Source: an uncultured Gammaproteobacteria bacterium (GTDB lineage Bacteria; Pseudomonadota; Gammaproteobacteria; Arenicellales; CAJQKF01). Taken from it: 64,000 nt of DNA. A program made the translations under genes and the position numbers. The stretch covers positions 33,944 to 97,943 of the forward strand of contig CAYGJZ010000001.1 in NCBI GenBank assembly GCA_964350265.1, in the 5' to 3' direction. Of the stretch, positions 33,044 to 51,634 are shown piece by piece (position 1 is the stretch's first letter; each line of letters opens with the position of its first letter). Below the pieces are notes generated by a model. The model did not search any database, was not told the DNA's origin, and saw only the letters and a program-made list of their open reading frames with translations.

Positions 33044-33129
33044 GGCTATCGAATTGCCGTGAACTTAGCCACGGGCTATCGTCCGATAAGACAGATCACT
33101 TTGACAGTGTTCTTTCACTCTCTCTACTC
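33044..33129 (+). promoter_or_regulatory. Conserved MSA-island promoter/operator element, copy 1 (upstream of msmA)
   Basis: GGCTATCGAA-N20-GGCTATCGTCCGATAAGACAGATCACTTTGACA (-35-like 33101-33106), then N17, then CTACTC (33124-33129). Near-identical to copy 3. Confidence 0.65.
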
Positions 33130-33253
33130 TTGCCGGACGTAATACCCGCGGCCCGATTCCGGAAATTCCGGCGTTGCCGCCGTGAATCCAGGCGGGACAC
33201 CCAGCCGTCGAGCGACCAGCGGTCGCCGACCATCACAGCGAGGAGCCAATACC

Positions 33254-34540
33254 ATGCCAACCAGAAATGCAGAAACCTGGAAGCAGGCGCCGAAGGGCCT
33301 GCGTCAGGGCGAATGGATCGATTCGCGCATCTACTCCGACCGGGAGATCTTCGAAGAAGAGCTGAACAAGGTCTGGAAGAAGTGCTGGATCGCGGTCTGC
33401 CACGAATCCGAGCTGTCCGAGCCCTACGATTTCCGCACCATGACCATCGCTCGCGAGCCGATCATCGTGGTGCGTGGCCCGGACAACAAGATCCGCGCCT
33501 TCCTCAACGTCTGTCCGCACCGCGGCAACATGATCGAGATGCGTCCTTCCGGCAACTTCAAGGAAGGCACCCCGTCGGGCAACCCCAAGCACATGACCTG
33601 CATGTTCCACGCCTGGCAGTTCGACATGAAGGGCAACTGTTCCTACATCTCGCGCGAGAAGGAAGGTTACCAGGAGCGCCTGACCCGCAAGGACGTCGGC
33701 CTGCGCAAGCTGAAGAGCGAAGTGTACTTCGGCGGTTTCGTCTGGGTCTGCCTGGACGACGAGATGGACCAGACCGTGGCCGAGTGGGGCGGCGGTGCCT
33801 TCGATTGCCTGCAAAAGGCGGTGGACGAAGAGCCGTTGGAGGTCTTCCACTACCACAAGGCCATCATTCCGTGCAATTACAAGCTGTGGCATGACACCAA
33901 CTCGGAGTTCTACCACGACTACCTGCACTACCATAACCGCATCACCGGCTTCAACGACGAGTACTTCGCGCGCAAGAACTCCGCCTACGACAACGGTCAC
34001 GTGGTAGTCGGCTCGTTCAAGGTGCGCTACGACCAGTACGAGGGCTTCCATTCCCGTGCCGATGCCTCCTTCCCGCACATGGAGGAGAATGCCTGGTACA
34101 TGATCGACATGTTCCCGGGCATCAACTTCAACCTGCGCGGTTCGGCGCTGCGTTGCGACCTGATGACGCCGCTGTCGCCCAACGAGGTGATGATCGAGTT
34201 CCGCGGTCTCGGCCTGAAGAGCGACACCCCGGAGCTGCGCAAGGCACGCATCGAGCACCACAACTCGATCTGGGGTCCGTTCGGGCGCAACCTGCACGAG
34301 GACCTGATCGCGGTCAGCGGCCAGGGCGGCACCATGGCGGAGAACGCCGAGCCGCGCCGCATCCTGCACGGCCGCCACGAGAACCACACCATCCACGACG
34401 AAGTCGGCATGCGTCACTTCTACGACGTCTGGGGCCAGATGATGGATCGCCTGCCGAGCGACCCGACCCAGCCCTACGCGCCGCCCCCCGCGGACCTCGA
34501 GCTCGAGGAGCCTGCGAAACAGGCTGCCAGCGCAGGCTGA
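33254..34540 (+). CDS. msmA: Methanesulfonate monooxygenase hydroxylase large subunit (Rieske/mononuclear Fe)
   Basis: 428 aa from MPTRNAETWK (GAGGAG RBS). Rieske motif CPH-(26 residues)-CMFH, the unusual X26 spacing described for MsmA. Followed by beta subunit, Rieske ferredoxin and reductase genes. Confidence 0.85.
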   Translation: MPTRNAETWKQAPKGLRQGEWIDSRIYSDREIFEEELNKVWKKCWIAVCHESELSEPYDFRTMTIAREPIIVVRGPDNKIRAFLNVCPHRGNMIEMRPSGNFKEGTPSGNPKHMTCMFHAWQFDMKGNCSYISREKEGYQERLTRKDVGLRKLKSEVYFGGFVWVCLDDEMDQTVAEWGGGAFDCLQKAVDEEPLEVFHYHKAIIPCNYKLWHDTNSEFYHDYLHYHNRITGFNDEYFARKNSAYDNGHVVVGSFKVRYDQYEGFHSRADASFPHMEENAWYMIDMFPGINFNLRGSALRCDLMTPLSPNEVMIEFRGLGLKSDTPELRKARIEHHNSIWGPFGRNLHEDLIAVSGQGGTMAENAEPRRILHGRHENHTIHDEVGMRHFYDVWGQMMDRLPSDPTQPYAPPPADLELEEPAKQAASAG

Positions 34541-34620
34541 GTGGCCCTTCCCGGCGGCGACCCGAGCGGTCGCCGCCGACCGATGCTGTTGATCGAAAAC
34601 CTGTCGAGTTCAAGAACACC

Positions 34621-35121
34621 ATGAGTAACGAAAAACGCACGGCCGCCGTGGAGGCCGTCAAGGACACCATCTACCGCGCCTGCCTGCACCTGGACGACGA
34701 AAAGTGGAGCGACTGGCTGGACCAGTGTGACCAGGACTTCACCTATGCCATCTGCGCCTACAGCCCGGAAATCCGCACCGACATGACCTACCTGTCCGGC
34801 GACCGCGAGGAAATGGTGTCGTTGACGGAGATGCTGCCCAAGCACAACACCGACCAGTCGCCGCTGAGCCGTCATGCCACCGTCTACGCGGTGGACGTCA
34901 GCGAGGACGGCACCGAGGCCAGCGCGGTGACCACCGTGGCCATCTACCAGACCCGTCTGAACGGCAACAGCTCCCACGTCGATGCCGGTTCCACCCACCT
35001 GTTCGTCAGTGCCAAGTACTACGACAAGTTGCGACTGGTGGACGGCAAGGCCAAGTTCGTCGAGCGGGTGACGCGGCTGGACACCCGCCGCCTCGACCGC
35101 GGCTCGCACTGGCCCTTGTAA
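34621..35121 (+). CDS. msmB: Methanesulfonate monooxygenase hydroxylase small (beta) subunit
   Basis: 166 aa from MSNEKRTAAVEAV (frame of ORF 34153..35121). NTF2-like ring-hydroxylating oxygenase beta-subunit pattern. Position follows msmA. Confidence 0.8.
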   Translation: MSNEKRTAAVEAVKDTIYRACLHLDDEKWSDWLDQCDQDFTYAICAYSPEIRTDMTYLSGDREEMVSLTEMLPKHNTDQSPLSRHATVYAVDVSEDGTEASAVTTVAIYQTRLNGNSSHVDAGSTHLFVSAKYYDKLRLVDGKAKFVERVTRLDTRRLDRGSHWPL

Positions 35122-35235
35122 CGACGACGCGGGGCCAAGCGCCCCGCCACGCCGTCGGGCGTCCGAGGAGGAGGCGCGTACCGGCCAACCGGGTCGGTGG
35201 CGCGCAGGAAAAAACGATAAGCGAGCCTACCCTAC

Positions 35236-35595
35236 ATGAGCTGGAAAAACGTCTGTAGCCTGAACGACCTGGAATCCAACAGCCTGCGCGAATTTGATGT
35301 CGACGGCATCAGCATCGTGCTGGCGCGCGTGGACGACCAGGTCCGTGCCATTCCCCCCGCCTGCCCGCACATGGAGGAGCCGCTGGCGCGCTCCGGCCTG
35401 TGTTCCGGCGGCATGCTCACCTGCACCAAGCACCTGTGGCAGTGGGACATCCTCACGGGCGAGGAGCGCGGCGACGCCGAGAAGCCGCTGTTGATGTACG
35501 AGACCAAGGTCGAGGACGACAACGTGCTGGTCTTCGTCGACGGCGAACTCGAGTACGAGTACGACGACGAGGATGACGAGGACGACGATGACTAG
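35236..35595 (+). CDS. msmC: Rieske-type [2Fe-2S] ferredoxin component
   Basis: 119-aa ORF. CPH-X17-CTKH Rieske motif. Poly-acidic C-terminal tail EYEYDDEDDEDDDD. Confidence 0.85.
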   Translation: MSWKNVCSLNDLESNSLREFDVDGISIVLARVDDQVRAIPPACPHMEEPLARSGLCSGGMLTCTKHLWQWDILTGEERGDAEKPLLMYETKVEDDNVLVFVDGELEYEYDDEDDEDDDD

Positions 35596-35646
35596 CGTCC
35601 ATCCCGGCGTCGGCGTTGGCCGTTGCCCGCGCGGAAGCGTGCGCGG

Positions 35647-36699
35647 ATGAGGATCGACGTCAAGGCCAAGAACGGCGAGTTTCACTTCGACTGCGAAGAA
35701 GGCGAACAGGTTCTCTATGCCGGCCTGCGCCAGGGCATCGAGCTGCCCTACGAGTGCGCCACCGGCACCTGCGGCACCTGCAAGGCCCGCGTCGGCGAAG
35801 ACCAGGGCGAACCCATCGTCAACGGCTGGGAGGAAGCCCCCGGTCGCGCCTACCTGAAGCCGAAGCGCGGCGAGTTCCTGATGTGCCAGGCCTCGGCGCG
35901 TGGCAGCTGCCGCATCGTCGTGCCGAGCAAGCTCAACGGCGCCGACGACCATGGTCGGCCCGGCTACCGCAACGGCGTCATCGGCGACCTGCGCACGCTC
36001 AACCCGGACGTGGTCGACTTCCGCGTGCGGCTCGATGCGCCGATGAGTTTCCGCGCCGGCCAGTTCGCCTGCCTGGAAACCCCGGGAGTGGAAGGCTTCC
36101 GCGCCTACTCGATGGTCAACTACGACACCAACGAGACCGACGAGCTGCACTTCGTGGTCAAGCGCAAGCCCGACGGCGCCTTCTCCAAGGCCCTGTTCGA
36201 CGGTCGCATCGACGGCGCTGCCACCCGGGTCTTCGGGCCCCTTGGCAAGGCGGTGTTCGACCCGGCGGAGAACCGCAACGTGCTGTGCATGGCCGGTGGT
36301 TCGGGCATCGCGGGGATGATGTCCATCGCCCGCCACGTCGACCACATCGACTACTGTGCCGATCACCACATGCGCATGTTCTTCGGCGTGCGCAGCGAGC
36401 GCGACACCTTCTACCTCGACGAGCTGGCGGAACTCGCCGAACGGCACGTCGACCGCATGTCGGTGTGGATCGTGCTTTCCGAAGAGGATCCGGGCGAGGC
36501 GCTGCGCGCCGCCTACCCGTCGCTGGGCTTCGACACCGGCTTCGTCCACGAGGTCATGGGTCGACGCATGCAGGGCCTGTACCAGGACTCGGTGGCCTTC
36601 GTGGCCGGGCCGCCGCCGATGGTCGACGGCGTGCTGCGGCTGCTGATCATCGACGGCCGCCTGCCGGCCTCGGACATTCGCTATGACAAGTTCTCGTAA
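35647..36699 (+). CDS. msmD: Ferredoxin-NAD(P)H reductase component (plant-type 2Fe-2S + FNR-like)
   Basis: 350 aa from MRIDVKAKNG (ORF track offers TTG at 35623). CATGTCGTCKARV cluster motif, FAD/NAD domains RAYSMVN and MAGGSGIAGMMS. Confidence 0.85.
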   Translation: MRIDVKAKNGEFHFDCEEGEQVLYAGLRQGIELPYECATGTCGTCKARVGEDQGEPIVNGWEEAPGRAYLKPKRGEFLMCQASARGSCRIVVPSKLNGADDHGRPGYRNGVIGDLRTLNPDVVDFRVRLDAPMSFRAGQFACLETPGVEGFRAYSMVNYDTNETDELHFVVKRKPDGAFSKALFDGRIDGAATRVFGPLGKAVFDPAENRNVLCMAGGSGIAGMMSIARHVDHIDYCADHHMRMFFGVRSERDTFYLDELAELAERHVDRMSVWIVLSEEDPGEALRAAYPSLGFDTGFVHEVMGRRMQGLYQDSVAFVAGPPPMVDGVLRLLIIDGRLPASDIRYDKFS

Positions 36700-36801
36700 C
36701 GCGATGGCGGCGGCTTGCACAATGAAGCAGCCTGCCGGAACATCGAACCACAACCGACGACATGACACCGGCGCTCGCGCGAAGGTATTGGAGGAACGCC
36801 G

Positions 36802-37236
36802 ATGACGGAAACCCCGAACAAGCACGAAGTCCTGGTCGATGCCGAGCTCTTTGCCGGCGTCGACCCGGCCACCATCGACCGCATTGCCGAAGTCTCCGGG
36901 TTCCGGCGCTTCGAGGAAGGCGACGTCGTCTACCAGATGGGCGATGACGCCGACCACGCCTTCGTGCTGGTCCAGGGCCGCGTGCGCTTCAGTCTCGGCG
37001 TGGGCAACCGGCCGGGCAGCGGGCATTCCATCATCACCCGCAACATGACCTACGGCTGGGCTGCGCTGATCGACGAGCGGCCGCGACGCGTGGCTACCGC
37101 CTCGTGTCTCGAGCCGACCGTGCTGCTGGCCATCGACGGTCGCAAGCTGTTGACCATTCTCGAGGACGACACCGCCTCCGGCTTCCTGGTCATGCGGCGC
37201 ATCGCCTCGATGATTGCCAGGAACTTCCTGGAGTAG
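36802..37236 (+). CDS. Stand-alone cNMP-binding-like domain protein (degenerate phosphate-binding cassette)
   Basis: 144-aa ORF with GGAGG RBS. CAP/cNMP-fold pattern GDVVYQMGD..D..FVLVQGRV...YGWAALIDERPRRVATASCL. No HTH or other output domain. Confidence 0.75.
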   Translation: MTETPNKHEVLVDAELFAGVDPATIDRIAEVSGFRRFEEGDVVYQMGDDADHAFVLVQGRVRFSLGVGNRPGSGHSIITRNMTYGWAALIDERPRRVATASCLEPTVLLAIDGRKLLTILEDDTASGFLVMRRIASMIARNFLE

Positions 37237-37260
37237 TATTCACCCGCGCACCAGCGTCAT

Positions 37261-37291
37261 GCCGCGACCCCCGGGGTCGCGGCGCATTTTT
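37261..37291 (+). terminator. Rho-independent terminator after the msmABCD-cNMP unit
   Basis: GCCGCGACCC-CCG-GGGTCGCGGC, then GCA, then TTTTT. Confidence 0.7.
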
Positions 37292-37369: not shown

Positions 37370-39043
37370 ATGGCCAAGACCGATCTTGAGATTGCCCGCG
37401 AGGCGAAGATGCAGCCGATCAACGAGATCGCGTCGAAGATCGGCATTCCCGACGATGCGCTGGCGCCCTTCGGTCGTACCAAGGCCAAGGTGTCCTTCGA
37501 CTTCATCAACACGCTGAAGGACCGCAAGGACGGCAAGCTGATCCTGGTCACGGCGATGTCGCCGACCCCGGCCGGCGAAGGCAAGACCACCACCACGGTG
37601 GGACTCGGCGATGCCCTGAACCGCATCGGCAAGAAGACCATGATGTGCCTGCGCGAGCCGAGCCTCGGCCCGTGCTTCGGCATGAAGGGCGGCGCCGCCG
37701 GCGGCGGCTATGCCCAGGTAGTGCCGATGGAAGACATCAACCTGCACTTCACCGGCGACTTCCACGCCATCACCTCGGCCCACAACCTGCTGTCGGCGAT
37801 GATCGACAACCATGTCTACTGGGGCAACGAGCTCGGCTTCGACCTGCGTCGCATCTCCTGGCGCCGCGTGGTCGACATCAACGACCGCTCGCTGCGTTCC
37901 ATCGCCAGCGGCCTGGGCGGCGTCAGCAACGGCTTCGTGCGCGAGACCGGCTACGACATCACCGTCGCCTCGGAGATCATGGCCATCTTCTGCCTGGCGC
38001 GCGACCTGGATGATCTCAGCGAGCGGCTCGGCAACATCATCGTCGGCTACACCCGGGACCGCGAAGCCATCTATGCCCGCCAGGTGAAAGCCCCGGGCGC
38101 GATGACCGCGTTGCTGCGCGACGCGCTGTCGCCGAACCTGGTGCAGACGCTGGAGAACAACCCGGTGTTCATCCACGGCGGTCCCTTCGCCAACATCGCC
38201 CATGGCTGCAACTCGGTGATCGCCACCACCACCGCGCTCAAGCTGGCCGACTACGTGGTCACCGAGGCCGGCTTCGGCGCCGACCTCGGGGCCGAGAAGT
38301 TCTTCGACATCAAGTGCCGCAAGGCCGGCCTGAATCCCGCTGCCGCGGTCATCGTGGCCACCGTGCGTGCACTGAAGATGCACGGCGGCGTGGCCCGCGA
38401 TGCGCTGGGTGCCGAGGACATTCCGGCATTGAAGGCGGGACTGGCCAACCTTGGCCGTCACATCCGCAACGTCGGTCACTACGGCGTTCCGGTGGTGGTG
38501 GGCATCAACCGCTTCTCCGGCGATACCGACGGCGAGATCGAGGCGGTCAAGGCCTACTGCCGCGAGCTCGGCGTGGAAGCCATTTCCTGCACCCACTGGG
38601 GCGACGGTGGCGCCGGCGCCGAGGCACTGGCCGAGGCGGTGGCCAAGCTGGCCGACAGCGGCAGCGCGCAGTTCCGCACCCTGTACGACGACGACGTGCC
38701 GCTGTGGCAGAAGGCGAAGACCATCGCGCAGAAGATCTACGGCGCCGAGGACATCATCGCCGATGCCCGCGTGCGTGCGCAGTTCACCGCCTACGAGGAA
38801 GCCGGTTTCGGTTCGCTACCGATCTGCATGGCCAAGACGCAATACAGTTTCTCCACCGATCCGAAGCTGCTCGGCGCGCCGAGCGATCACGCGGTGGCCA
38901 TTCGCGAAGTGCGCCTGTCCGCCGGTGCCGGCTTCCTGGTGTGCATCTGCGGCGACATCATGACCATGCCTGGTTTGCCGCGAGTGCCCGCCGCAGACAA
39001 GATTTTCGTCGACGATAACGGCAATATCGAGGGATTGTTCTAG
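37370..39043 (+). CDS. fhs: Formate--tetrahydrofolate ligase
   Basis: 557-aa [19 protein letters not shown]-loop and full-length collinearity with the FTHFS family as recalled ([22 protein letters not shown]). Confidence 0.95.
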
Positions 39044-39103: not shown

Positions 39104-39175
39104 ACAAGTGATAGCCCGCCCCTATCGTTTCATTCGTTCAAATGACTTTACAAATCGAAGTCAGTCCGCTGAGAT
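39104..39175 (+). promoter_or_regulatory. Conserved MSA-island element, copy 4 (degenerate; far upstream of msmE)
   Basis: GATAGCCCGCCCCTATCGTTTCATTCGTTCAAATGACTTTACA (-35-like TTTACA 39147-39152), then N17, then TGAGAT. Shares the CTATCGT...A.AT.ACTTT.AC frame with copies 1-3, but weaker. Confidence 0.4.
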
Positions 39176-39679
39176 AGATGCAGGTCGGAGGCCGGTAACG
39201 ATGACGTTACCGGTTCGCCGAAACACCGTGAATCACGGTGTTTTCGCAGCGACAAGCAGAACCGGCCCTGGGGTGACACCCTGGCGAGAACAAGTCGCGA
39301 ACACCCTGGCCCGGTCCGCCGCGCCAGGCGGGGTTACGCGACCCGCCGCGACACCCGGCAGCATGTGCGACCCGGCTGCCAGTTGCCAACGGCAACTCGA
39401 CACGGCGCGAATGACAGGAGGAAACATGACGCGTAACCCCAGCTACGCGCAACGACGTGCGCAGCCGGCCACCCCGGCCCGAACAGGACAGAGCCATGCT
39501 CATGCCCTGTCTCGCGCCTGCGCCCTCTCGGTTTCCCGTTCGATTTACCAAGCTCATACTCCGGCCATGACAGCTCACCTGCCTTGCCCGGTGCCCTGAG
39601 TGAGGCCGCCCGGTGCCCATGCGGGCAACCGGTGATGCCTTAGCTACCCAAGAAGTTTGACCACGATAAGGAGGAAGCC

Positions 39680-40816
39680 ATGTTTCAACATCGAACGATT
39701 TCCCGGACCCTGAGCACCGCCGCTGCGGCGATGTTCGCGGTTGGTGTACCGGGAACCGCCCTCGCGGCGGACAAGGACTACGGCAATCCGGGGGAGCCGG
39801 TTGACCTGGTCATTGGTTACCAGCCGTACTACACCCAGTCCTGGTCCGGCGTGGTCATGCGCGGACAGGAACTGTGGAAGAAATACCTTCCGGAAGGTTC
39901 CAGCGTGGAATTCGCCATTGGCCTGCAAGGCGCCATCGTGGTGAACAACATGCTCGCCGGCAAGAACGACATCGGCTACATGGGCGACATGCCGGCCATC
40001 GTTGCCACCACCAAGGACGAGGTCGCCGACATTCGCATCGTCGCCACCCTCGGCACGGGCTGGGACATGTGCAACGTGTTCCTGGTGCGCAACGACGCAC
40101 CGGAATTCGCCGATGCACAGGAGGCCATGAAGTGGCTGGACGGCAAGATCGTCGCGGTGCCGCAGGGTAGCTGTACCGACCGCTTCGCCCGCGCCGTGTT
40201 CGAGAAGCTGTCCATCGAGCCGGAGGCCTACCTCAACCAGAACATCGAGGTCATCACCAGTGGCTTCCGCGTCGGCAAGCTGGACGCGGCGGTCATGTGG
40301 GAACCGACCACCTCGCGCCTGGTGGAAGAGGGCCTGGCCCGACGTGTTGCTTCCGGCGCCTCCGCCGATGAGAACGACGGTGGCTTCCTGGCCATGCGTG
40401 GCGACCTCATCAAGCAGCGCCCGGACGTGGTCAAGGGCTGGCTCGAGGCCGAGCTGGACGCGCAGCTTTTCCTCTCCGATCCGGCCAACTACATGGCGGT
40501 GGTGAAGATGGCGCAGGACCAGACCACCGGCTTCTCCGAGAAGATCCTGTGGAGCTCGCTGGCCGGTTCCTTCCCGGAATCCCAGGGTGGCGTGGAAGTG
40601 CGTGACTACAAGGAATACGCGATTACCCCGCGCGCCCAGGAGCTGCTGACCCGTGCGACCAAGTTCCTGCACTCGATCAAGAGCATCAAGTCGGACACCC
40701 TGCGTCCGGAAGCCGTGATGACCGAGTTCACCGAGGAGATCCTCAAGGAACGTGGCCTGACCGCGCCGATCGGCGAGATCAAGGCTCAGCCCGAGTCCGC
40801 CTACACCGGTAGCTGA
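39680..40816 (+). CDS. msmE: Sulfonate-type (NMT1/TauA-SsuA-like) ABC substrate-binding protein
   Basis: 378-aa ORF. AAGGAGG RBS, signal peptide ...GTALAA. First gene of a binding-permease-ATPase-permease set, the same order as msmEFGH. Confidence 0.75.
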   Translation: MFQHRTISRTLSTAAAAMFAVGVPGTALAADKDYGNPGEPVDLVIGYQPYYTQSWSGVVMRGQELWKKYLPEGSSVEFAIGLQGAIVVNNMLAGKNDIGYMGDMPAIVATTKDEVADIRIVATLGTGWDMCNVFLVRNDAPEFADAQEAMKWLDGKIVAVPQGSCTDRFARAVFEKLSIEPEAYLNQNIEVITSGFRVGKLDAAVMWEPTTSRLVEEGLARRVASGASADENDGGFLAMRGDLIKQRPDVVKGWLEAELDAQLFLSDPANYMAVVKMAQDQTTGFSEKILWSSLAGSFPESQGGVEVRDYKEYAITPRAQELLTRATKFLHSIKSIKSDTLRPEAVMTEFTEEILKERGLTAPIGEIKAQPESAYTGS

Positions 40817-40861
40817 TCGGCAGGTCATCGACGATCCGTCGTCGACGACCCGTCCGTGACT

Positions 40862-40897
40862 GCCTGGTTCATGCGCCAGCGCGCGCATGAACCAGGC
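40862..40897 (+). other. Intercistronic 15-bp perfect hairpin between msmE and msmF
   Basis: GCCTGGTTCATGCGC-CAGCGC-GCGCATGAACCAGGC, with no following T run. Confidence 0.6.
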
Positions 40898-41021
40898 AAC
40901 CGCTGCCCTGTAACCACGTCCGCGGCACCAGGGTCATCAACCACCGCGCCCTGCCGGGTCCGGTGACCAGGCCAGGACCCTGCCGCAAGTTCGATTCCAT
41001 GTCTGACATCCCAAGGAGTTT

Positions 41022-42398: not shown

Positions 42399-43270
42399 TT
42401 TCCGCGGTAGAAAACATGAAGGGCAACGGCGGTTCCGCACCGTTGTCCGCCAACGGCGGAGCCATCCGCATCGACGACGTGGTCAAGGTCTATGACCCGG
42501 ACGGCGCAGCGGTGATGGCGGTGGATCATTGCAGCCTGGACATCAAGGCCGGCGAGATCTGCATGATCGTTGGCCCGTCCGGCTGCGGCAAGACCACCTT
42601 GCTGAACGCCATTGCCGGCTTCCACGACATCACTTCCGGCAGCATCCACATGGATGGCGAACTGCTGTGCGGCCCCGGCAAGCCGATGGCCCAGCCCGGT
42701 TCCGACCGCATCGTGGTGTTCCAGAACGGCGCGCTGTTTCCCTGGCGCACCAACCTGGAGAACGTCATCTTCGGCCCGGTGATGCAGGGCAAGATGAGCA
42801 AGAAGGAGGCCATCGAGAAGGCCCGTGGCATGATGGCCGACGCCGGTCTCAACGACGTCGAGTACAACTACCCGGGCGAGATCTCCTCCGGCGTGCGTCG
42901 CCGCGTGGAAATCGTCCGCGCGTTGATGAACGATCCCAAGGTGCTGCTGTTCGACGAGCCCTACCGCGCCCTCGACTCGCTGACCAAGTCGGTCATGCAC
43001 GAGGCGTTGCTGGAGATCTACTACCGCAACCCGGTGACCATCTTCTTCATCACCCACGACCTGGAAGAGGCGTTGTTCGTCGGCCACAAGGTGGCCATCA
43101 TGACCACCCGCCCGTGCAAGCCGAAGAAGATTCTCGACGTCGACATTCCGCATCCGCGGGACTACGGCGTGTTGACCAGCAAGCGATTCCGCGAGCTGAT
43201 GGAAGAAACCGTTGATGCCGTGCACGAGGAGGCCCTGAAGGCCTTCGATCGCGGCGAGAAGGAGGGCTGA
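42395..43270 (+). CDS. msmG: ABC ATPase with non-canonical signature motif
   Basis: 291-aa ORF (TTG overlapping the msmF stop; alternative ATG 42416). Walker A GPSGCGKTT, signature position reads ISSGVRRR, Walker B LLFDEP, H-loop ITHD. Confidence 0.85.
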   Translation: MISAVENMKGNGGSAPLSANGGAIRIDDVVKVYDPDGAAVMAVDHCSLDIKAGEICMIVGPSGCGKTTLLNAIAGFHDITSGSIHMDGELLCGPGKPMAQPGSDRIVVFQNGALFPWRTNLENVIFGPVMQGKMSKKEAIEKARGMMADAGLNDVEYNYPGEISSGVRRRVEIVRALMNDPKVLLFDEPYRALDSLTKSVMHEALLEIYYRNPVTIFFITHDLEEALFVGHKVAIMTTRPCKPKKILDVDIPHPRDYGVLTSKRFRELMEETVDAVHEEALKAFDRGEKEG

Positions 43271-43273
43271 TCG

Positions 43274-44107
43274 ATGGCCACAGCCACCAAGCGCGCTGGT
43301 CGCAAACTGCCGCTGCGCTCGATGCGTCGCGGCGTCATTTCCATCATCGTCTTCCTGGTCCTGTGGGAGATCGGTTCAAGCTTCGGCGAGTGGTTCGGCA
43401 TCCAGCTGCCGTGGATCGGGCGCATTCCCCCGCCCACCGACGTGCTGGTTTCCTGGAAGGGCCTGCTCACCGACCAGGGCTACTGGTACAGCTGGTACCA
43501 GACCTACCTGCGGGTGTTCGCCGGCTTCCTCGCCGCCATGGTGGTGGGGATACCCTTCGGACTGGCCATGGCGGTGAGCCGCACGGCCTACGGCATCCTG
43601 TTCCCGCCCTTCGAGGTGCTGCGTCCGATCCCGCCGCTGGCCTGGGTGCCGGCCGCGATCATCTTCTGGCCCACCCAGGAGCTGTCGATCGCCTTCGTGA
43701 CCTTCCTTGGCGCCTTCTACACCATCGTCATCAACGTGCTCGGCGGAGCCCGCTCCATCGACGTCCGCTACTTCCAGGCGGCGCAGTCCATGGGTGCCAA
43801 TTCCTGGAACGTGTTCCGGCGCATCATCCTGCCCGGCACGCTGCCCTCGATCTTCGTCGGCGCGGCGGTGGGCATGGGCATCACCTGGGAAGTGGTGGTG
43901 GCCGCGGAGATGATCTCCGGTGGCGGCGGCGCCATCCAGGGCGGTTCCGGTGGTGGCCTGGGCTTCTTCATCTGGAACTCCTACGTTGGCGGCTCGGATA
44001 CGCAGATCGTGGTCGGCATGATCAGTATCGGCATCGCCGGCTACATCTCCAGCGAGCTGATCCGTTGGCTCGGCACGTTTGCCACGCCGTGGCTGCGTCA
44101 ACGATGA
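43274..44107 (+). CDS. msmH: NitT/TauT-family ABC permease (second TMD)
   Basis: 277-aa ORF. The BPD-transporter permease core is paralogous to the MsmF C-terminal half (LRPIPPLAWVPAAIIFWP...). Confidence 0.85.
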   Translation: MATATKRAGRKLPLRSMRRGVISIIVFLVLWEIGSSFGEWFGIQLPWIGRIPPPTDVLVSWKGLLTDQGYWYSWYQTYLRVFAGFLAAMVVGIPFGLAMAVSRTAYGILFPPFEVLRPIPPLAWVPAAIIFWPTQELSIAFVTFLGAFYTIVINVLGGARSIDVRYFQAAQSMGANSWNVFRRIILPGTLPSIFVGAAVGMGITWEVVVAAEMISGGGGAIQGGSGGGLGFFIWNSYVGGSDTQIVVGMISIGIAGYISSELIRWLGTFATPWLRQR

Positions 44108-44151
44108 GCCCCACCAAGGCCGCTTAACGAACTTCAAGAGATAGCATAGTC

Positions 44152-45078
44152 ATGGCGATTCAATCCTCCGCCCGGCAGGCAGCAGCCTCCGGCGGCAAAC
44201 TCGGCTCCGACATCGCCCCGGGCGAGATCAAGGTCGAGAACGTTTCCAAGTCCTATGGCACCGGTCCGGTGGCGCGCGAAGTCGTGCGCGACTGTTCCTT
44301 CGTCATCGAGCGCGGCAAGCTCAACGTGATGATCGGCCCCTCCGGCTGCGGCAAGAGCACGCTGATCCGCCTGATCGCCGGCTTCCAGCGGCCCAACAAG
44401 GGCAGCGTGACGCTGGACGGCAAGCCGATCACCGAGCCCTCCCGCGACCGGCTGGTGGTGTTCCAGGAGACCGCGCTGTTCCCCTGGATGACCACCTGGG
44501 AGAACATCGTCTACGGGCCCAAGGCACGTGGCACGTTCAACCGCGAGACCCGCGAGCGGGCAGAGTTCCTGCTCGACAAGGTGGGCCTGGTGCAGTTCCG
44601 CGAGAAGTATCCCACCCAGTTGTCCGGTGGCATGCAGCGTCGCGCCGAACTGGCCCGGGCGATGATCAACAATCCCCAGGTGATGATCCTCGACGAGCCG
44701 TTCCGCGGCCTCGACTCGATGACCAAGGAACTGATGTGGGAGTACTACGCCTCGCTGTTCGAGGAGTCCGGCCGCACCAACTTCTTCGTCACCACCGACA
44801 TCGACGAAGCGGTGTTCCTGGCCGACCGCATGATCATCATGACCAACATCCCCACCCGCGTGCGCGCGGTGCTCGACATCGACCTGCCGCGACCGCGCAA
44901 GCTGTCCGACATGATCGAGGACGACCGCGCCAACGAGGTGAAGATGAAGGCACTGGCGATCCTCCACGAGGAGGCGATGAAGTCGTTCAGCGGCGGCAGC
45001 GCCGCGGCTTCGGACTTCGTCGAGGCCTACTCCCGCCGGGTCGGCAAGCGCAACCGGTCCGACGGCGACGACGGCTGA
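44152..45078 (+). CDS. Second ABC ATPase (canonical signature, H-loop His replaced)
   Basis: 308-aa ORF. Walker A GPSGCGKST, signature LSGGMQRR, Walker B ILDEPF, but the H-loop position reads VTTD instead of THD. Confidence 0.85.
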   Translation: MAIQSSARQAAASGGKLGSDIAPGEIKVENVSKSYGTGPVAREVVRDCSFVIERGKLNVMIGPSGCGKSTLIRLIAGFQRPNKGSVTLDGKPITEPSRDRLVVFQETALFPWMTTWENIVYGPKARGTFNRETRERAEFLLDKVGLVQFREKYPTQLSGGMQRRAELARAMINNPQVMILDEPFRGLDSMTKELMWEYYASLFEESGRTNFFVTTDIDEAVFLADRMIIMTNIPTRVRAVLDIDLPRPRKLSDMIEDDRANEVKMKALAILHEEAMKSFSGGSAAASDFVEAYSRRVGKRNRSDGDDG

Positions 45079-45281
45079 TGCCCGACTGGCTGGTATCGCG
45101 CGCCACCGTCATCACCCTGGCGGTGATCGGCGGGGTGATCTCGCTGGTGGTGTCGCAGCTGCATGGTCGTGGCCGCATCGACGACGCCCAGGCGAAGAAG
45201 TTCAACCGCGTCGGCTACGGCTTCATGTGGGCCAGCATCGCGCTGTTCATCTACGCCGGCTTCCGCGCCGGCTACCAGTAG
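45078..45281 (+). CDS. Small two-TM membrane protein
   Basis: 67 aa, MPDWLVSRATVITLAVIGGVISLVV...FMWASIALFIYAGF. The ATG overlaps the ATPase stop (TGATG), implying translational coupling to the transporter operon. Confidence 0.55.
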   Translation: MPDWLVSRATVITLAVIGGVISLVVSQLHGRGRIDDAQAKKFNRVGYGFMWASIALFIYAGFRAGYQ

Positions 45282-45320: not shown

Positions 45321-45352
45321 AAAAAAACGGGCCCGGTTTGTAGCCGGGCCCG
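45321..45352 (-). terminator. Rho-independent terminator of the sulfite dehydrogenase operon
   Basis: CGGGCCCGG-N7-CCGGGCCCG. Read on the minus strand it is followed by TTTTTTT (the A run at 45321-45327 on the plus strand). Confidence 0.75.
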
Positions 45353-45418
45353 GCGTTCATCGCTCAAGGAGGAGTATCCGTTACCCCGTGGTCTGCGCCC
45401 CGTGGGTCATCGCCTGCT

Positions 45419-46042
45419 TCAGCCTGCGTGGTCGCCGTCGGCAACGGTGCCGATGGGCTTGCAGTCCGACATGCAGCGTTCTGCGCTGGCGTCCGGGCGG
45501 TCGTCGTTGATGAAGGCATCCTTGTTCGGCATCTCGATGGCCGGCATGGTCTCCGCGTTCATGGTGAAGTCCTCGGCCACCAACCCGTTCAGGTGGTAGA
45601 TGTAGGCGGACACCGCGTAGACCTCGTCGTTGGTCAGCGAGTATGGCCGGTCCATCGGCATGGCACGACGCACGTAGTCGAAGATGATCGGCGCATAGGG
45701 ATACATGCTGCCGGGCGTCAGCTTGCGCGGACGCTCGGTCATGCTGCCGATGCCACCGACCATGCTGCCGTACACAGGCCCGCCGCCGGCATCGGCGCCG
45801 TGGCAGGCCAGGCACTTGGCCTCGTACACCGCCTTGCCCTCGGCCACCGTGCCCTGTCCTTCGGGCAGGCCGACACCGGTGGGTGCCTGGATCTCGATGT
45901 CCCACAGGGCGAGGTCGCTCTCGGCGATGTCCGAGCCGAAGGCAGCGCCTTCCGGACGTTCACCGAAGTCGGCCTGTACCGCGCCGACGAGGGCGAAGGA
46001 CAGCGTTGCCGCGATGGCGGCATGCAGTTTACGCGATGGCAT
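45419..46042 (-). CDS. Monohaem cytochrome c subunit of sulfite dehydrogenase (SorB/SoxD-like)
   Basis: 207-aa ORF with signal peptide and a single CLACH haem motif. Start overlaps the molybdoprotein gene by 14 nt. Confidence 0.75.
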   Translation of the reverse strand: MPSRKLHAAIAATLSFALVGAVQADFGERPEGAAFGSDIAESDLALWDIEIQAPTGVGLPEGQGTVAEGKAVYEAKCLACHGADAGGGPVYGSMVGGIGSMTERPRKLTPGSMYPYAPIIFDYVRRAMPMDRPYSLTNDEVYAVSAYIYHLNGLVAEDFTMNAETMPAIEMPNKDAFINDDRPDASAERCMSDCKPIGTVADGDHAG

Positions 46043-47387
46043 TTTTCACCTCCCCACTTTCGGAAACGGACCAGGGGAAGACACCGTTGTGGTGCTGCAC
46101 GAAGCCGACGATCTCGCGCTTGCGCGCCAGGTCTTCCACCGTGGGCTGCACGTAGCCGGTGTCGTCCATGGCGCGGCTGGCGATCTTCGCCGGGCTGCCG
46201 TCCCACTGCCAGTTGTAGCGGAAGCGGGTCAGGCACTTGTCCATCACCGGTCCTTCCACCGTGGCCTCGCGCCAGGTCTTGCCGCCGTCGAAGGTCACGT
46301 CCACCGCCTTGATCTTGCCAAGCCCCGACCAGGCAAAGCCCTGCACCTCGTAGAGGCCGGGGCCGGCCATGTTCATGCCGCCGGAGGGGTTGGTGATCAC
46401 CGACTTGCATTCCATCTCCATGCTGAACTGGCGCCACTTGCCGTCCGGCATCGGGTCGGTGTAGCGGGCGGTCTCGCCGCGCACGTGGGCCGGCTGGTCC
46501 ACCACCTTGATGCGGCGCAGCCACTTCACGTTGGTGTTGCCTTCCCAGCCGGGGATGATGGCGCGCAGCGGGTAGCCCTGCTCGGCACGCAGCATCTCGC
46601 CGTTCTGGCCATAGGCCAGCAGCACGTCGTCCATGATCTTCTCGATGGGAATCGAGCGCAGGTGGCCGGAGCCGTCACCGCCCTCGAGCATCACCCACTT
46701 GCCTTCCGCCTTCACACCGGCCTCGTCCAGCAGCCAGGCCAGCGGAATGCCGGTCCACTGTCCGCAGGACAACAGGCCGTGGCTCTGCTGCACGGTGGTC
46801 GCCTTCGGCTCGCGCCAGTCGGTGAGCGTGTTGCCCGAGCACTCCAGGAAGTGGAAGCGTGATACCGACGGGTAGCGCATCAGGTCGTTCATGGTGAACA
46901 CCAGCGGCCGCTCCACCAGTCCGTGGATGACCAGCCTGTGCTGCTCCGGGTCGATCTGTGCAACGCCGTTGTGGTGACGTTCGAAGAACAGCCCGTTCGG
47001 CGTCACGATGCCGATCTGGTGCTGCAGCGGCGTCATGCTCCAGTCGGAGAAGTTCTGCTTGTTGACGAAGACATCCGTACGGCGCCGCTTGACGTGATCC
47101 TCGTACTGGATCGGCATGCCGTAATCCGTTTCGGGAATCGGCCGTCCCATGGTCTTGTTGCTCTCCGGCACCGCCAGTGGCTCGGCGCGCGCGGCGGATA
47201 TGCCCGCGCCTGAGGCCATGGCAACACCTGCCATGGAAAGACCGGATTGCAGGAACCGGCGACGTTCGCCGGCGGAAGGTGCCCTGGAGGGCTGCGTGCT
47301 CAGCGTTCGGTCGTTCGGCGCATCGGCCGAACCCGAACCGCCCGCCTCCCCGCTGCTGCGGGTACGGACTTTCTTGGTAGTCATCAA
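46029..47387 (-). CDS. SoxC/SorA-family molybdopterin sulfite dehydrogenase
   Basis: 452-aa ORF. Tat signal ERRRFLQSG. Sulfite-oxidase-fold motifs HFLECSGN, GWEGNTNVKWL and a C-terminal dimerisation domain. Confidence 0.85.
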   Translation of the reverse strand: MMTTKKVRTRSSGEAGGSGSADAPNDRTLSTQPSRAPSAGERRRFLQSGLSMAGVAMASGAGISAARAEPLAVPESNKTMGRPIPETDYGMPIQYEDHVKRRRTDVFVNKQNFSDWSMTPLQHQIGIVTPNGLFFERHHNGVAQIDPEQHRLVIHGLVERPLVFTMNDLMRYPSVSRFHFLECSGNTLTDWREPKATTVQQSHGLLSCGQWTGIPLAWLLDEAGVKAEGKWVMLEGGDGSGHLRSIPIEKIMDDVLLAYGQNGEMLRAEQGYPLRAIIPGWEGNTNVKWLRRIKVVDQPAHVRGETARYTDPMPDGKWRQFSMEMECKSVITNPSGGMNMAGPGLYEVQGFAWSGLGKIKAVDVTFDGGKTWREATVEGPVMDKCLTRFRYNWQWDGSPAKIASRAMDDTGYVQPTVEDLARKREIVGFVQHHNGVFPWSVSESGEVKNAIA

Positions 47388-47495: not shown

Positions 47496-47577
47496 GAATA
47501 GAAACGCGCTTGGCAAACTGCAAAGTGATCTCGCTTATCGGATGATAGGCAGCGGCTTGCTTGACAGCGATGGAGCC
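47496..47577 (-). promoter_or_regulatory. Conserved MSA-island promoter/operator element, copy 2 (upstream of the sulfite dehydrogenase operon)
   Basis: The minus strand reads GGCTCCATCG...GCCTATCATCCGATAAGCGAGATCACTTTGCAG-N-CTATTC. The -10-like box is about 110 nt before the ATG at 47387. Confidence 0.6.
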
Positions 47578-47655
47578 CTCGCGCCATGGTGCACCGTTGC
47601 CAACCCACATGGTCCCGTCCTTGTCCGCCGCCCGTTCCCGTCTTCTGCCTGGTGT

Positions 47656-48618
47656 ATGCCCCATCGGCCACGTGGTGGCCGTGATGGTCGACGGTTGAGC
47701 GCGCCCGTATCGCCGCGGCGACGGCTGGCCGCGGCCAGCGCGGTGGTGCTCGGCGCGGTGGCCACCGCCGCCAACCCGGTGTTCGTGCGGATCAGTGACG
47801 TCGGCCTGGTGGCCTCGGCCTTTCACCGCATGTTCTGGGCCATCCCGGTGCTGGCGCTGTGGGCCTGGCTGGCGCGGCGCCGGGAATCCGCGCCACGCGG
47901 TCTCGGCACACGCGACGCGGTGCTGCTGCTGGCCTGCGGTGCCTTCTTCGCCGGCGACCTGGTGGCGCTGCATACCTCCATCTCGCTGACCTATGCCGCC
48001 AATGCCATCCTGTTCCTCAATGCCCAGCCCATCTACGTGGTGCTGGCCGGCTGGCTGCTGTTCGGCATCGTGGTCACCCGGCGCTTCGTGCTGGCGGCGG
48101 CGGTGGCCATGGCCGGGGCGGTATTGCTGGTGGGGCAGGGCGCACGGTTCGGTGGCGAACACCTGCTCGGCGACGGCCTCGGCGTGGTCGCCGGGCTGTG
48201 CTATGCCGGCTACATCCTCGCCGCCGCCTACCTGCGCAACGGTCGTGGCAGTGCGGTGATCAACCTGTGGACCTGCGTGGTCGGCGCGCCCATCCTGCTG
48301 GTGGCGGCGCTGGTTGCCGGCCAGGACATCCTGCCGCCCAGCGGGCGCGACCTGGCATTGATGATTGCGCTCGGCGTGGTCTCGCAGGCACTCGGCCAGG
48401 GCTTGATCGTGTGGGGCCTGGCCTACCTGCCGTCGAGTTTCTCCTCGGTGGCGTTGATGGTCGCCCCGGTGGCCGCCGCCGGTTTTGCCTGGCTGCTGCT
48501 GGACGAGGCCATGAGCGCACTGCAACTGCTGGCCATGGGCATCGTCCTGGCCGGTGTCTACGGTGCCTGGCGGGCCAGCTTCGCGGTCAAGCGCAGGCTC
48601 GAGGCGGCGGCGACGTGA
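47656..48618 (+). CDS. DMT-superfamily (EamA-like) transporter
   Basis: About 320 aa from MPHRPRGG within ORF 47542..48618 (start uncertain). Ten predicted TM segments and two EamA repeats. Confidence 0.7.
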   Translation: MPHRPRGGRDGRRLSAPVSPRRRLAAASAVVLGAVATAANPVFVRISDVGLVASAFHRMFWAIPVLALWAWLARRRESAPRGLGTRDAVLLLACGAFFAGDLVALHTSISLTYAANAILFLNAQPIYVVLAGWLLFGIVVTRRFVLAAAVAMAGAVLLVGQGARFGGEHLLGDGLGVVAGLCYAGYILAAAYLRNGRGSAVINLWTCVVGAPILLVAALVAGQDILPPSGRDLALMIALGVVSQALGQGLIVWGLAYLPSSFSSVALMVAPVAAAGFAWLLLDEAMSALQLLAMGIVLAGVYGAWRASFAVKRRLEAAAT

Positions 48619-48626
48619 ATGCCTTC

Positions 48627-49619: not shown

Positions 49620-49707
49620 GCTCGTTGCCTGCAAAAATCAACCATACATCGCCGAGCCCACGTCGTTCGTCGGCCGGCACAACGAGACGAGAGCCGGCTC
49701 GAAGTTT

Positions 49708-49735
49708 GAACGCTAAGACGTTGATCATAGCGTTC
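49708..49735. promoter_or_regulatory. Palindromic LysR-type operator in the lysR / tauE divergent region
   Basis: GAACGCTA-N12-TAGCGTTC (8-bp perfect arms), 33 nt upstream of the tauE-like ATG. Confidence 0.55.
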
Positions 49736-49767
49736 CCACGCCGGGTGGTCGAGGGAGGAGGGCGACC

Positions 49768-50529
49768 ATGACGATGATGACGATCCTGCCACTGGCCGTG
49801 GTGGTCCTGGTTTCCGGCGCATTGATCGGCTGTGTCGGCATCGGCGGCGTGCTGCTGGTGCCGGCGCTGGCCTACATCGGCGGCATCGACGTGCACCTGG
49901 CCATTGCCAGCGTGATGCTCAGCTATTTCTTCACCGGCGTGCTCGGCACCTGGCTGTATGCGCGCAAGGGATCCATCACCTGGGCGATGGCCGGCACCCT
50001 GTGCGCCGGCGCCATGCCCGGTGCCTTCCTCGGCGCCGCCGCGGTGCACGCGGTGCCGGGGCCGACGGTGGAACTGATCATCGGCCTTTTGGTGATCTTC
50101 TCCGGCCTGCATGCCCTGTACAGCGGCGAACGCAGTGCCAGCCGGGAGAGCCTGTCGGCGGCGGCACTGTTCGCGGTGGGCTTGTTCACCGGCTTCGGTT
50201 CGTCCCTCACCGGCTCTGGCGGGCCGTTGCTGCTGGTGCCGCTGCTGGTGTGGATGGGGCTGCCGGTGCTGGTCTCCATCGGTCTCAGCCAGGTCATCCA
50301 GGTGCCCATCGCGGTGCTGGCCACCGCGGGCAACATCGCCTACGGCGAGATCGACCTGGTGCTGGCACTGGTGGTGGCGGCGATGCTGATGCTCGGCGTG
50401 GTGGCCGGTGCGCGGCTGGCCCACCGGGTGTCGGCACGGACCCTGAAGCAGGTGGTGGCCTGGGTGATGGTGGCGGTGGGCGTCATCATCGTGGTGCGGA
50501 TCGGCTGGACCATGCTCGGCGGCGGTTGA
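49768..50529 (+). CDS. TauE/SafE-family sulfite (anion) exporter
   Basis: 253-aa ORF with about 8 TM segments. TauE/SafE-type glycine-rich repeats (GIGGVLLVPAL, GSGGPLLLVPLL). Confidence 0.8.
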   Translation: MTMMTILPLAVVVLVSGALIGCVGIGGVLLVPALAYIGGIDVHLAIASVMLSYFFTGVLGTWLYARKGSITWAMAGTLCAGAMPGAFLGAAAVHAVPGPTVELIIGLLVIFSGLHALYSGERSASRESLSAAALFAVGLFTGFGSSLTGSGGPLLLVPLLVWMGLPVLVSIGLSQVIQVPIAVLATAGNIAYGEIDLVLALVVAAMLMLGVVAGARLAHRVSARTLKQVVAWVMVAVGVIIVVRIGWTMLGGG

Positions 50530-50537
50530 GGCGAACC

Positions 50538-51536
50538 GTGGATCTCTCCGGCCTGGTGCGCGACTACGGCGACGTCGACGCCGAGTGGCGCGCCGCGCGC
50601 GAGGATGCCGCGCTGTTCGACTTCTCCTTCATGTCGCGGGCGCGGCTGGCCGGCGCCGGTGCCGCCGCCGCGCTCAACGCCTTCCAGCCCCGGCCGGTGG
50701 AGCGGCTGGCGGTGGGCCGCATCGCCTATGCCCTGCGTCTCGCCGCCGACGGCTTCGTACGCACCGATCTCACCGTGTGGCGGCTGGCCGAGGATGTCTT
50801 CGAGCTGTACAGCGGCGACCACCGGGACATCGACGACCTGCTCGCCATGGCGGGTGACGACGTCGCCGTGACCGACCTGTCCGAACATGCCGTCTTCGCC
50901 GTGCAGGGGCCGTCGACCCCGGCGCGGATGCACGCCCTGTGCGGCGACGCCCTGGACGGGCTCGACTACTTCGGCTTTCGCGCCATCGAGGTCCATGGCC
51001 TGCCGGTGCTCGCCGGGCGGCTGGGCTATACCGGCGAGAAGGGCGTCGAGCTGATCGTCGATGCCGACCATGCCGCGGTCCTGTGGCAACACCTCGCCGA
51101 CCGCTTGCCGCCGGCCGGCTTCGCCGCCATCGACCGGCTGCGCATCGAGGCCGGCTTCGTGCTGTTCGCCAACGAGTGCCGGCTGCCGGTGCGGCCGGCG
51201 GACCTGGGTCTTGGCGGGTTCGCCGCCGACCCGGCGCCGCCGCGCTGGCGGCTGACCGGCTTCCGCGCCGCCCAGGCCCTGCCCACCGAGCCCTGGCGTC
51301 CGCCCGGGCCGCCGCGGCCACCACGGGCGGGGGAGATCGCGGTGACCTCCGCCTGCCGCCACGGCGACGGCGTCATCGGCCTCGGCTTCGTCGACGCCGG
51401 GTCGGCCGCCGCGCGGCTGCACGACCCGGTCACCTTCGGCGAGGTGGTGGCCGCCTCCATCCCCTTTCTCGACCCCGAAAAACGCCGTCCCCGCGGGCCC
51501 TGGCGGGCCGAACCCGGCCCCGGTTCCGCCGGCTGA
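50538..51536 (+). CDS. GcvT-family (aminomethyltransferase-like) folate-binding protein
   Basis: 332 aa from a GTG (VDLSGLVRDYG) in the frame of ORF 50001..51536. GcvT landmarks AALFDFSFM, FAVQGP, GYTGEKGVEL, RLRIEAGF. Starts 8 nt after the tauE stop. Confidence 0.75.
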   Translation: MDLSGLVRDYGDVDAEWRAAREDAALFDFSFMSRARLAGAGAAAALNAFQPRPVERLAVGRIAYALRLAADGFVRTDLTVWRLAEDVFELYSGDHRDIDDLLAMAGDDVAVTDLSEHAVFAVQGPSTPARMHALCGDALDGLDYFGFRAIEVHGLPVLAGRLGYTGEKGVELIVDADHAAVLWQHLADRLPPAGFAAIDRLRIEAGFVLFANECRLPVRPADLGLGGFAADPAPPRWRLTGFRAAQALPTEPWRPPGPPRPPRAGEIAVTSACRHGDGVIGLGFVDAGSAAARLHDPVTFGEVVAASIPFLDPEKRRPRGPWRAEPGPGSAG

Positions 51537-51548
51537 ACCATCAAACGG

Positions 51549-51634
51549 GGCTATCGAACCGCGCTCTTTTAAGTTCCCGGCTATCGTCTGATAAGCGAGA
51601 TCACTTTGACGCGCTTTCCCGCCGCTCACTATTC
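51549..51634 (+). promoter_or_regulatory. Conserved MSA-island promoter/operator element, copy 3 (upstream of the panB-like gene)
   Basis: GGCTATCGAA-N20-GGCTATCGTCTGATAAGCGAGATCACTTTGACG (51606-51611), then N17, then CTATTC (51629-51634). Same 30-nt spacing of the two GGCTATCG boxes as copy 1. Confidence 0.65.

Follow-up and report, generated by a model that had tools for sequence, protein, structure and literature searches.

Promoters controlled by LysR-type transcriptional regulators (LTTRs), such as those of BenM/CatM, CbnR and OxyR, are usually laid out with a recognition site near position -65 and an activation site near -46, and LTTRs usually autoregulate from the divergent spacer. The operator of OxyR is composed of ATAG-N7-CTAT units (ATAG-N7-CTAT-N7-ATAG-N7-CTAT). 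In the atmospheric and marine sulfur cycle, methanesulfonate (MSA) is a major intermediate. Here, we describe a putative LTTR-type promoter-operator element in a 64,000-nucleotide stretch of DNA, hereafter the window, from an uncultured gammaproteobacterium (GTDB lineage Arenicellales; CAJQKF01; assembly GCA_964350265.1, contig CAYGJZ010000001.1, positions 33,944 to 97,943 of the forward strand), where it precedes the genes of the MSA monooxygenase (msmABCD), a sulfite dehydrogenase (sorAB) and a PanB-like enzyme of predicted one-carbon (C1) metabolism, with a sibling form before the MSA uptake genes (msmE and the following transporter genes). In Filomicrobium strain Y, genes for a LysR protein, TauE, a GcvT-like protein, a PanB-like protein and a SoxCD-type sulfite dehydrogenase lie next to msmABCD/EFGH, and putative regulators, orfX and orfY, have been mentioned for other strains (Henriques and De Marco 2015, PMC4433239). 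The window carries the same gene set as the Methylosulfonomonas, Marinosulfonomonas and Filomicrobium clusters of that study, but the study deals with genes only and gives no operator or promoter. Our full-text literature search returned no described msm operator or confirmed msm regulator; a 2006 study of msmEFGH transcription in Methylosulfonomonas lay outside the scope of this search and may hold promoter data.

The element shares several features with the LTTR-controlled catabolic promoters (BenM/CatM at benA/catB, CbnR, ClcR): 4-N7-4 interrupted dyads, dyad centres near -65 and -46 that lie about two helical turns apart, a proximal site abutting the -35 hexamer, a regulator gene inside the catabolic cluster, and a site common to several operons. 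It differs from them in that its half-sites are CTATC/GATAA instead of ATAC/GTAT, the inner half-sites form a tight 12-bp palindrome, and an additional half-site is located 30 bp upstream; moreover, the LysR gene of the window is not divergent from a motif-bearing promoter, and no autoregulatory copy was found. Similarity to OxyR operators is also seen, as the msmE box reads exactly ATAG-N7-CTAT(C), the box of the main type reads nnAG-N7-CTATC, and AG, CTATC, GATAA and ATCA make up four conserved elements spaced ~10 bp apart. However, the third and fourth of these differ from ATAG/CTAT in both sequence and register, the LysR protein is not an OxyR orthologue (109 bits versus an NCBIfam cutoff of 329), and the target genes belong to sulfonate and C1 catabolism, not to the oxidative-stress response.

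From the sequence evidence, we consider it very probable that the element is a functional operator-promoter defining a regulon of the msm, sor and panB units, together with msmE. A preliminary description of this DNA had listed three strong copies, before msmA (copy 1), the sulfite dehydrogenase genes (copy 2) and the PanB-like gene (copy 3), and a degenerate fourth copy before msmE, and the motif sequences that it cited were found at their coordinates for all copies (Table 1). The three strong copies lie far above chance. A search of the window that allowed up to 3 mismatches to the 30-nt core CTATCGTCYGATAAGNNAGATCACTTTGAC returned only the segments 33076-33105 (+), 51581-51610 (+) and 47548-47519 (-), and 0.00 matches were expected from 100 dinucleotide shuffles. 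A position weight matrix (PWM) built from orthologous sites gave copies 1-3 scores of 43-53 bits, against less than 8 bits for the rest of the window and a best score of 14 bits among 20 shuffled windows. The strict box AG-N7-CTATC occurs five times in the window, each time inside one of the four promoters, with 2.0 occurrences expected and five or more reached in 1 of 100 shuffles. The paired GGCTATCG boxes of copies 1 and 3, previously reported to be identically spaced, are separated by exactly 30 nt in both; copy 2, before sorA, lacks the distal box at -30.

Each of the three copies also contains a sigma-70-type arrangement of -35 hexamer, spacer and -10 hexamer, namely TTGACA-N18-TACTCT in copy 1, TTGCAG-N17-TATTCT in copy 2 and TTGACG-N18-TATTCT in copy 3, the last of which was picked independently by a sigma-70 consensus scan. 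The -10 hexamer of the preliminary description does exist, but its CTAYTC frame needs correction, because a frame one base rightward (TACTCT, TATTCT and TATTCT, or TAnnnT) fits better. The distances from the -10 hexamer to the start codon, given there as roughly 110-160 nt, were measured as ~124, 107 and 160 nt for copies 1, 2 and 3, and the start of transcription from copy 1 is predicted near 33137. The 11-mer at 35215-35225, which had been pointed out as an isolated match just before msmC, is present, but we dropped it as an internal site since such matches are at chance level: the window contains six such stray matches of 11 nt to the copies, whereas ~12 are expected.

Comparison with related loci, which were gathered via MsmA homologues (73-88% identity) and LysR homologues (58-88% identity) and are referred to below by L numbers, showed the main form of the element, diverged versions included, in 17 promoters from at least 11 taxa with GC contents of 44-69%, namely the source of the window and at least ten other gammaproteobacterial lineages. 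An exact look-up of the window's own MsmA gave no record. Its presence before msmA, sorA and panB across these taxa supports, in silico, the earlier proposal of an MSA regulon that includes the PanB paralogue. The consensus of the main form is nnAG-N7-CTATCR-NN-YGATAA(G)-NN-A-N-ATCA-C-TTGACA-N17/18-TAnnnT. The element stands before msmA in L001 (MsmA 88% identical), L007, L009 and L013 (MsmA ~77%), before sorA in L011 and L057, and before the PanB-like gene in L011, L057, L058 and L059. In L008, L052, L054 and L056, a diverged form stands before panB-msmABCD or before the gene upstream of msmA, its position being specifically before panB in L008, L054 and L056. The PanB-like gene regularly belongs to the group; in four taxa, it heads a panB-msmABCD operon behind the element. 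When whole intergenic regions were aligned in pairs and four ways, conservation was restricted to the motif blocks, and the flanks and spacers had diverged. The sigma-70-type layout is repeated in 17 orthologous promoters, and across a table of 22 promoters (17 of the main type and 5 of the msmE type) the offset from CWATC to the -35 hexamer is fixed at 25 nt. The box nnAG-N7-CTATC is present in 16 of the 17 main-type promoters and all five msmE-type promoters, and the palindrome TATCR-NN-YGATA is the best-conserved feature of the main type. The extra CTATCRA box, exactly 30 nt upstream, is found in 10 of 14 msmA and panB promoters, and in none of the three sorA and five msmE promoters.

The fourth copy, before msmE, requires a different description. 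With the PWM of the main motif, the msmE upstream region scored below 8 bits, that is, no match, and we therefore reject its earlier interpretation as a weak or degenerate copy and regard it as a distinct, conserved promoter type; the box, the TTTACA-N17-TGAGAT hexamers and the assignment of msmE to the group were all retained. Alignment with relatives showed that five taxa (the window, L054, L056, L057 and L059) keep ATAG-N7-CWATC, a TCATT-N6-AATGA dyad and TTTACA before msmE, with the consensus ATAG-N7-CWATC-r-tt-TCATT-N6-AATGAy-TTTACA-N17-TGAGAT-like. Between the window and L057, 66 of 70 positions of this promoter block are identical, whereas the remaining ~500-nt leader has diverged. The distance of the main type is kept, with the C of CWATC placed exactly 25 nt ahead of the -35 hexamer. 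The TCATT-N6-AATGA dyad (5-N6-5) is missing from the msmA, sorA and panB promoters, and the msmE-type promoter is without the 12-bp palindrome TATCR-NN-YGATA. Because the box, the 25-nt offset and the promoter are conserved across taxa, msmE belongs with the other three units. An msmE-type element (ATAG-N7-CTATC, 20 nt, TTTACA) also occurs in L052 at 4345-4400, before a 77-amino-acid open reading frame (ORF) adjoining the LysR gene, so the sibling promoter type may control more than msmE. In the leader between the promoter and the msmE start (39176-39679, ~500 nt; of similar length in L057), a hairpin with a T-run behind it lies near 39222-39250, and the block CAGGAGGAAAC (~39414-39424), conserved with L057, could serve a small upstream ORF as its ribosome-binding site. 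A search of this leader against Rfam gave nothing credible at E<=1.

As a mechanism, we think it reasonably probable that sigma-70-type promoters are fused to an operator read by a LysR tetramer that co-induces the msm, sor and panB units; promoter activity, the binding protein, the sign of regulation and the effector are predicted here in the form of a model. Each copy would consist of a TTGACA-like -35 hexamer, a spacer of 17-18 nt, a weak TAnnnT -10 hexamer and an operator extending from ~-70 to -38, when the transcription start is placed ~7 nt past the -10 hexamer and dyad centres are calculated from there. Three parts make up the operator: the interrupted dyad nnAG-N7-CTATC, of LTTR style and with its centre near -65; directly next to the -35 hexamer, the promoter-proximal module YGATAAG-NN-ANATCA (a GAT-N7-ATC dyad), with its centre near -46; and the 12-bp palindrome TATCR-NN-YGATA, formed jointly by the inner half-sites of both dyads. 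The YGAT-N7-ATCA dyad near -46 lies 19 bp, or about two helical turns, from the first dyad. T-N11-A is literally present in copy 1 (33065-33079) and in the msmE box, whereas copies 2 and 3 do not have it. An extra CTATCRA half-site lies exactly 30 bp (three helical turns) upstream in most promoters of msmA and panB. The LysR tetramer would anchor at the -65 box and contact the -46 module; on sensing methanesulfonate or a product of it, LysR would reposition and recruit RNA polymerase, and the MSA monooxygenase (msmABCD), the sulfite dehydrogenase (sorAB) and the PanB-like C1 enzyme would be co-induced. The uptake operon (msmE and following genes) may be tied in through the sibling promoter, which has the same -65 box and spacing and a different proximal dyad.

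In agreement with the preliminary description, Pfam assigns a DNA-binding domain to no protein between 33 and 53 kb other than the LysR protein encoded in the cluster, and no further DNA-binding protein recurs among the msm clusters compared. A LysR orthologue was present in the cluster in 11 of 12 lineages with a sufficiently long contig, the msm clusters concerned including L007, L008, L009, L011, L013, L052, L054, L057, L058 and L059. The LysR proteins of the window, L007, L008, L009, L011, L013, L052 and L054 are orthologues, 55-93% identical, with hardly any variation in the winged helix at the N terminus (MFLRQFxYLVALExEGHFGRAAxxCHVSQPSLSSAIKQLE). With LysR homologues (58-88% identity) as the starting point, each of three look-ups ended in a motif-bearing msm cluster. 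This co-occurrence, together with the LysR-started look-ups, strengthens the candidacy of LysR without proving it, and we lean towards the cluster-encoded LysR as the reader of the element. In NCBIfam, LysR reaches no curated equivalog, the best being CynR with 148 bits versus a cutoff of 277; among solved structures, P. aeruginosa OxyR comes closest to it (E = 3e-20). The gene transcribed divergently from lysR is tauE, or sorA in L008. The palindrome GAACGCTA-N12-TAGCGTTC, noted earlier in the lysR-tauE spacer, does occur in the window; it is not conserved in the close relatives L011, L057 and L058, and we rejected it as an autoregulatory site; a sigma-70-like promoter is the only conserved block of this spacer. 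A search of the lysR spacers of eight taxa for ATAG-N7-CTAT-like boxes gave nothing consistent.

Three near-identical 30-nt cores within 18 kb, with inverted repeats inside the copies, could also be produced by a repeat of the repetitive extragenic palindrome (REP) or miniature inverted-repeat transposable element (MITE) type, or by recent intragenomic duplication, without any regulatory role. The preliminary description had named dispersal at many unrelated loci as a result that would contradict an operator. The degenerate core TATCNNNYGATAAGNNANANCANTTTG, scanned against a genome collection of 185,579 species (596 Gb) and a metagenome collection, gave 16 and 26 matches, respectively, and no genome of the former collection carried the three copies of the window. 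Fourteen of the 16 were in AT-rich sequence of Bacteroidota, Firmicutes or similar origin and had no common context, and the other two precede sorA in a gammaproteobacterial metagenome-assembled genome (L011) and msmA in one from Arenicellales (L013); in the metagenome collection, 3 of the 26 were non-chance, each being an msmA promoter already found. Thus, the ~5 non-chance matches over both collections all lie before msm or sor genes, and every match outside AT-rich coding sequence precedes msmA or sorA, so that, over the 64-kb window and these collections, the motif is confined to promoters of msm, sor or panB-like genes and is not dispersed at unrelated loci. In addition, the orientation and the distance to the downstream gene are fixed, and Rfam has no match at the copies. 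Comparison of the copies in the window showed conserved boxes and unconserved spacers, which argues against recent duplication, and conservation between taxa is likewise limited to the boxes, spacers excluded. On the evidence of the window and the two collections, an origin as a repeat or duplication is hardly credible and, in effect, already refuted.

The reader of the element is less certain than the element itself, and several observations weigh against LysR. The relaxed box AG-N7-CWATC alone gives as many matches as expected and so is not specific, only AG is conserved in the left half of the -65 dyad of the main type, and the near-consensus -35 hexamer is unusual for a strictly activator-dependent promoter. 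The lysR-tauE spacer holds no copy of either box type, nor is a recognisable copy found in the lysR-sorA spacer of L008, and no LysR gene is present within 10 kb of the motif-bearing L056 cluster. Because the winged helix-turn-helix signature is widespread among LTTRs, the resemblance to OxyR carries little weight. Since the 12-bp palindrome could be read by a simple dimeric regulator of another family, the msm/sor/panB operator-promoter might be real and yet be read at TATCR-NN-YGATA by a dimeric helix-turn-helix factor encoded outside the cluster, with LysR controlling only its divergent tauE-gcvT-like operon. The palindrome being the most invariant feature, the motif-free lysR-tauE spacer and the absence of a LysR gene near the L056 cluster fit this explanation, as does the msmE-type promoter, which is entirely without the palindrome. 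Yet a 12-bp dimer site leaves the AG 9 bp upstream of CTATC, the downstream ATCA and the -30 box unexplained, and these clusters conserve no other DNA-binding protein; the TetR encoded next to msmA in L001 was rejected as a regulator, as its gene has a separate palindrome of its own and is absent from the other loci. We regard an outside factor as rather unlikely. The different proximal dyads of the two promoter types also make a second factor possible. A single LysR anchor box (nnAG-N7-CWATC, -65) might be combined with two alternative proximal modules, one for the promoters of catabolism and detoxification (GAT-N7-ATC) and one for that of uptake (TCATT-N6-AATGA), the latter being read by a partner factor, possibly linked to the cluster's cyclic nucleoside monophosphate (cNMP)-binding proteins, so that uptake and oxidation would answer different signals; we give this arrangement only a small chance. 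A composite operator in general, with LysR on nnAG-N7-CWATC, a second factor on the proximal module and different control of uptake and catabolism, seems to us slightly less probable still. Both promoter classes do share the distal box with its exact spacing but differ in the proximal dyad, which is deeply conserved within each class, TCATT-N6-AATGA resembles CRP-type sites in its 5-N6-5 geometry, and the cluster encodes two cNMP-binding-domain proteins; against this, those proteins are without a DNA-binding domain, conserved LTTR activation sites are often found where no second factor is involved, and no locus compared offers a candidate second regulator.

The genes surrounding the element were identified by Pfam and NCBIfam profiles (Table 1). 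The longest ORF of the EamA transporter begins at 47542, within the sorA operator, but its homology to the EamA protein of L057 starts only at residue 48, which places the true start near 47680 and the operator outside the coding sequence. The PanB-like protein narrowly passes TIGR00222 (212.5 versus a cutoff of 207.55) and fails PRK00311 (246.6 versus 272). In L008, L054, L056 and L059, panB is directly upstream of msmA in one operon, often with a GcvT-like gene alongside; this arrangement suggests tetrahydrofolate-linked handling of the formaldehyde from the MSA monooxygenase, and the PanB-like enzyme probably carries out a C1/tetrahydrofolate-linked step that handles this released formaldehyde. 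A stand-alone cNMP-binding protein after msmD is also encoded in L001, L052 and L059, and the N-terminal cNMP-binding domain of MsmF is also found in L057; both proteins look like ligand-sensing modules in the MSA cluster. The ORF at 45078-45278 is 67% identical to a 67-amino-acid ORF in L057, with ORFs of 65-77 amino acids at the same position in L007, L009, L052, L054, L056, L058 and L059, and it probably encodes a small membrane protein of the transporter operon. Across the window, Rfam detected only a tRNA at gathering score and no structured RNA or riboswitch leader. Elsewhere in the window, a perfect LTTR-type box, ATAGATTCGATCTAT (ATAG-N7-CTAT), is located at 5899-5913, ~12 nt before an ORF at 5926 (MSYTHLRSFDAV...) that seems to encode a further LysR-type regulator with no relation to the msm cluster.

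Table 1. Promoter-operator features and genes in the window (positions in the 64,000-nucleotide stretch; minus-strand features mostly in the direction of reading).
Feature	Position	Strand	Remarks
Promoter-operator, copy 1	33046-33130	+	before msmABCD and cNMP-binding gene
Copy 1 distal box CTATCGAA	33046-33053	+	
Copy 1 box TTAG-N7-CTATC	33065-33080	+	
Copy 1 palindrome TATCGTCCGATA	33077-33088	+	
Copy 1 dyad CGAT-N7-ATCA	33084-33098	+	
Copy 1 -35 TTGACA	33101-33106	+	
Copy 1 -10 TACTCT	33125-33130	+	
Transcription unit 1	33254-37284	+	msmA, msmB, msmC, msmD, 144-aa cNMP-binding protein
msmA-msmD	33254-36699	+	
144-aa cNMP-binding protein	36802-37236	+	without DNA-binding domain
Strong terminator hairpin	37260-37284	+	end of unit 1
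Formate-tetrahydrofolate ligase	37370-39043	+	
Sibling promoter	39111-39175	+	before msmE and transporter genes; from alignment with relatives
msmE promoter box ATAG-N7-CTATC	39111-39126	+	
msmE promoter dyad TCATT-N6-AATGA	39130-39145	+	
msmE promoter -35-like TTTACA	39147-39152	+	
msmE promoter -10-like TGAGAT	39170-39175	+	N17 after TTTACA
Transcription unit 4	39680-45278	+	msmE, msmF, ATPase, permease, second ATPase, small ORF
msmE through second ATPase	39680-45078	+	
msmF (permease)	41022-42398	+	N-terminal cNMP-binding domain
Small conserved ORF	45078-45278	+	after last transporter ATPase
Transcription unit 2	45328-47387	-	sorA and cytochrome c gene
Terminator	45352-45328	-	end of unit 2
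Cytochrome c gene	46042-45419	-	
sorA	47387-46029	-	TIGR04555 sulfite dehydrogenase, 625 bits
Promoter-operator, copy 2	47559-47495	-	before sorAB (sulfite dehydrogenase and its cytochrome c)
Copy 2 box CAAG-N7-CTATC	47559-47544	-	
Copy 2 palindrome TATCATCCGATA	47547-47536	-	
Copy 2 dyad CGAT-N7-ATCA	47540-47526	-	
Copy 2 -35 TTGCAG	47523-47518	-	
Copy 2 -10 TATTCT	47500-47495	-	
EamA transporter	near 47680 to 48618	+	predicted true start
LysR-type regulator, 330 aa	49619-48627	-	Pfam HTH_1 and LysR_substrate
lysR sigma-70-like promoter TCGACC-N17-TATGAT	49724-49752	-	in lysR-tauE spacer
TauE	49768-50529	+	
GcvT-like protein	50538-51536	+	
Promoter-operator, copy 3	51551-51635	+	before PanB-like gene
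Copy 3 distal box CTATCGAA	51551-51558	+	
Copy 3 box TAAG-N7-CTATC	51570-51585	+	
Copy 3 palindrome TATCGTCTGATA	51582-51593	+	
Copy 3 dyad TGAT-N7-ATCA	51589-51603	+	
Copy 3 -35 TTGACG	51606-51611	+	
Copy 3 -10 TATTCT	51630-51635	+	
Transcription unit 3	51795-52691	+	PanB-like ketopantoate hydroxymethyltransferase homologue
MutY	52830-53894	+	

With its PWM, its promoter positions and a candidate regulator, the element amounts to a concrete regulatory code that can be tested, and it may also provide an inducible promoter-regulator pair for biosensors. Because the arrangement is of the conventional LysR type, what it offers is annotation of a biogeochemically important pathway, not a new principle. 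The motif can be used for delimiting the MSA regulon in genomes and metagenome-assembled genomes, and the shared regulation, beyond mere neighbourhood, argues that the sulfite dehydrogenase and the PanB-like enzyme belong to the MSA pathway.

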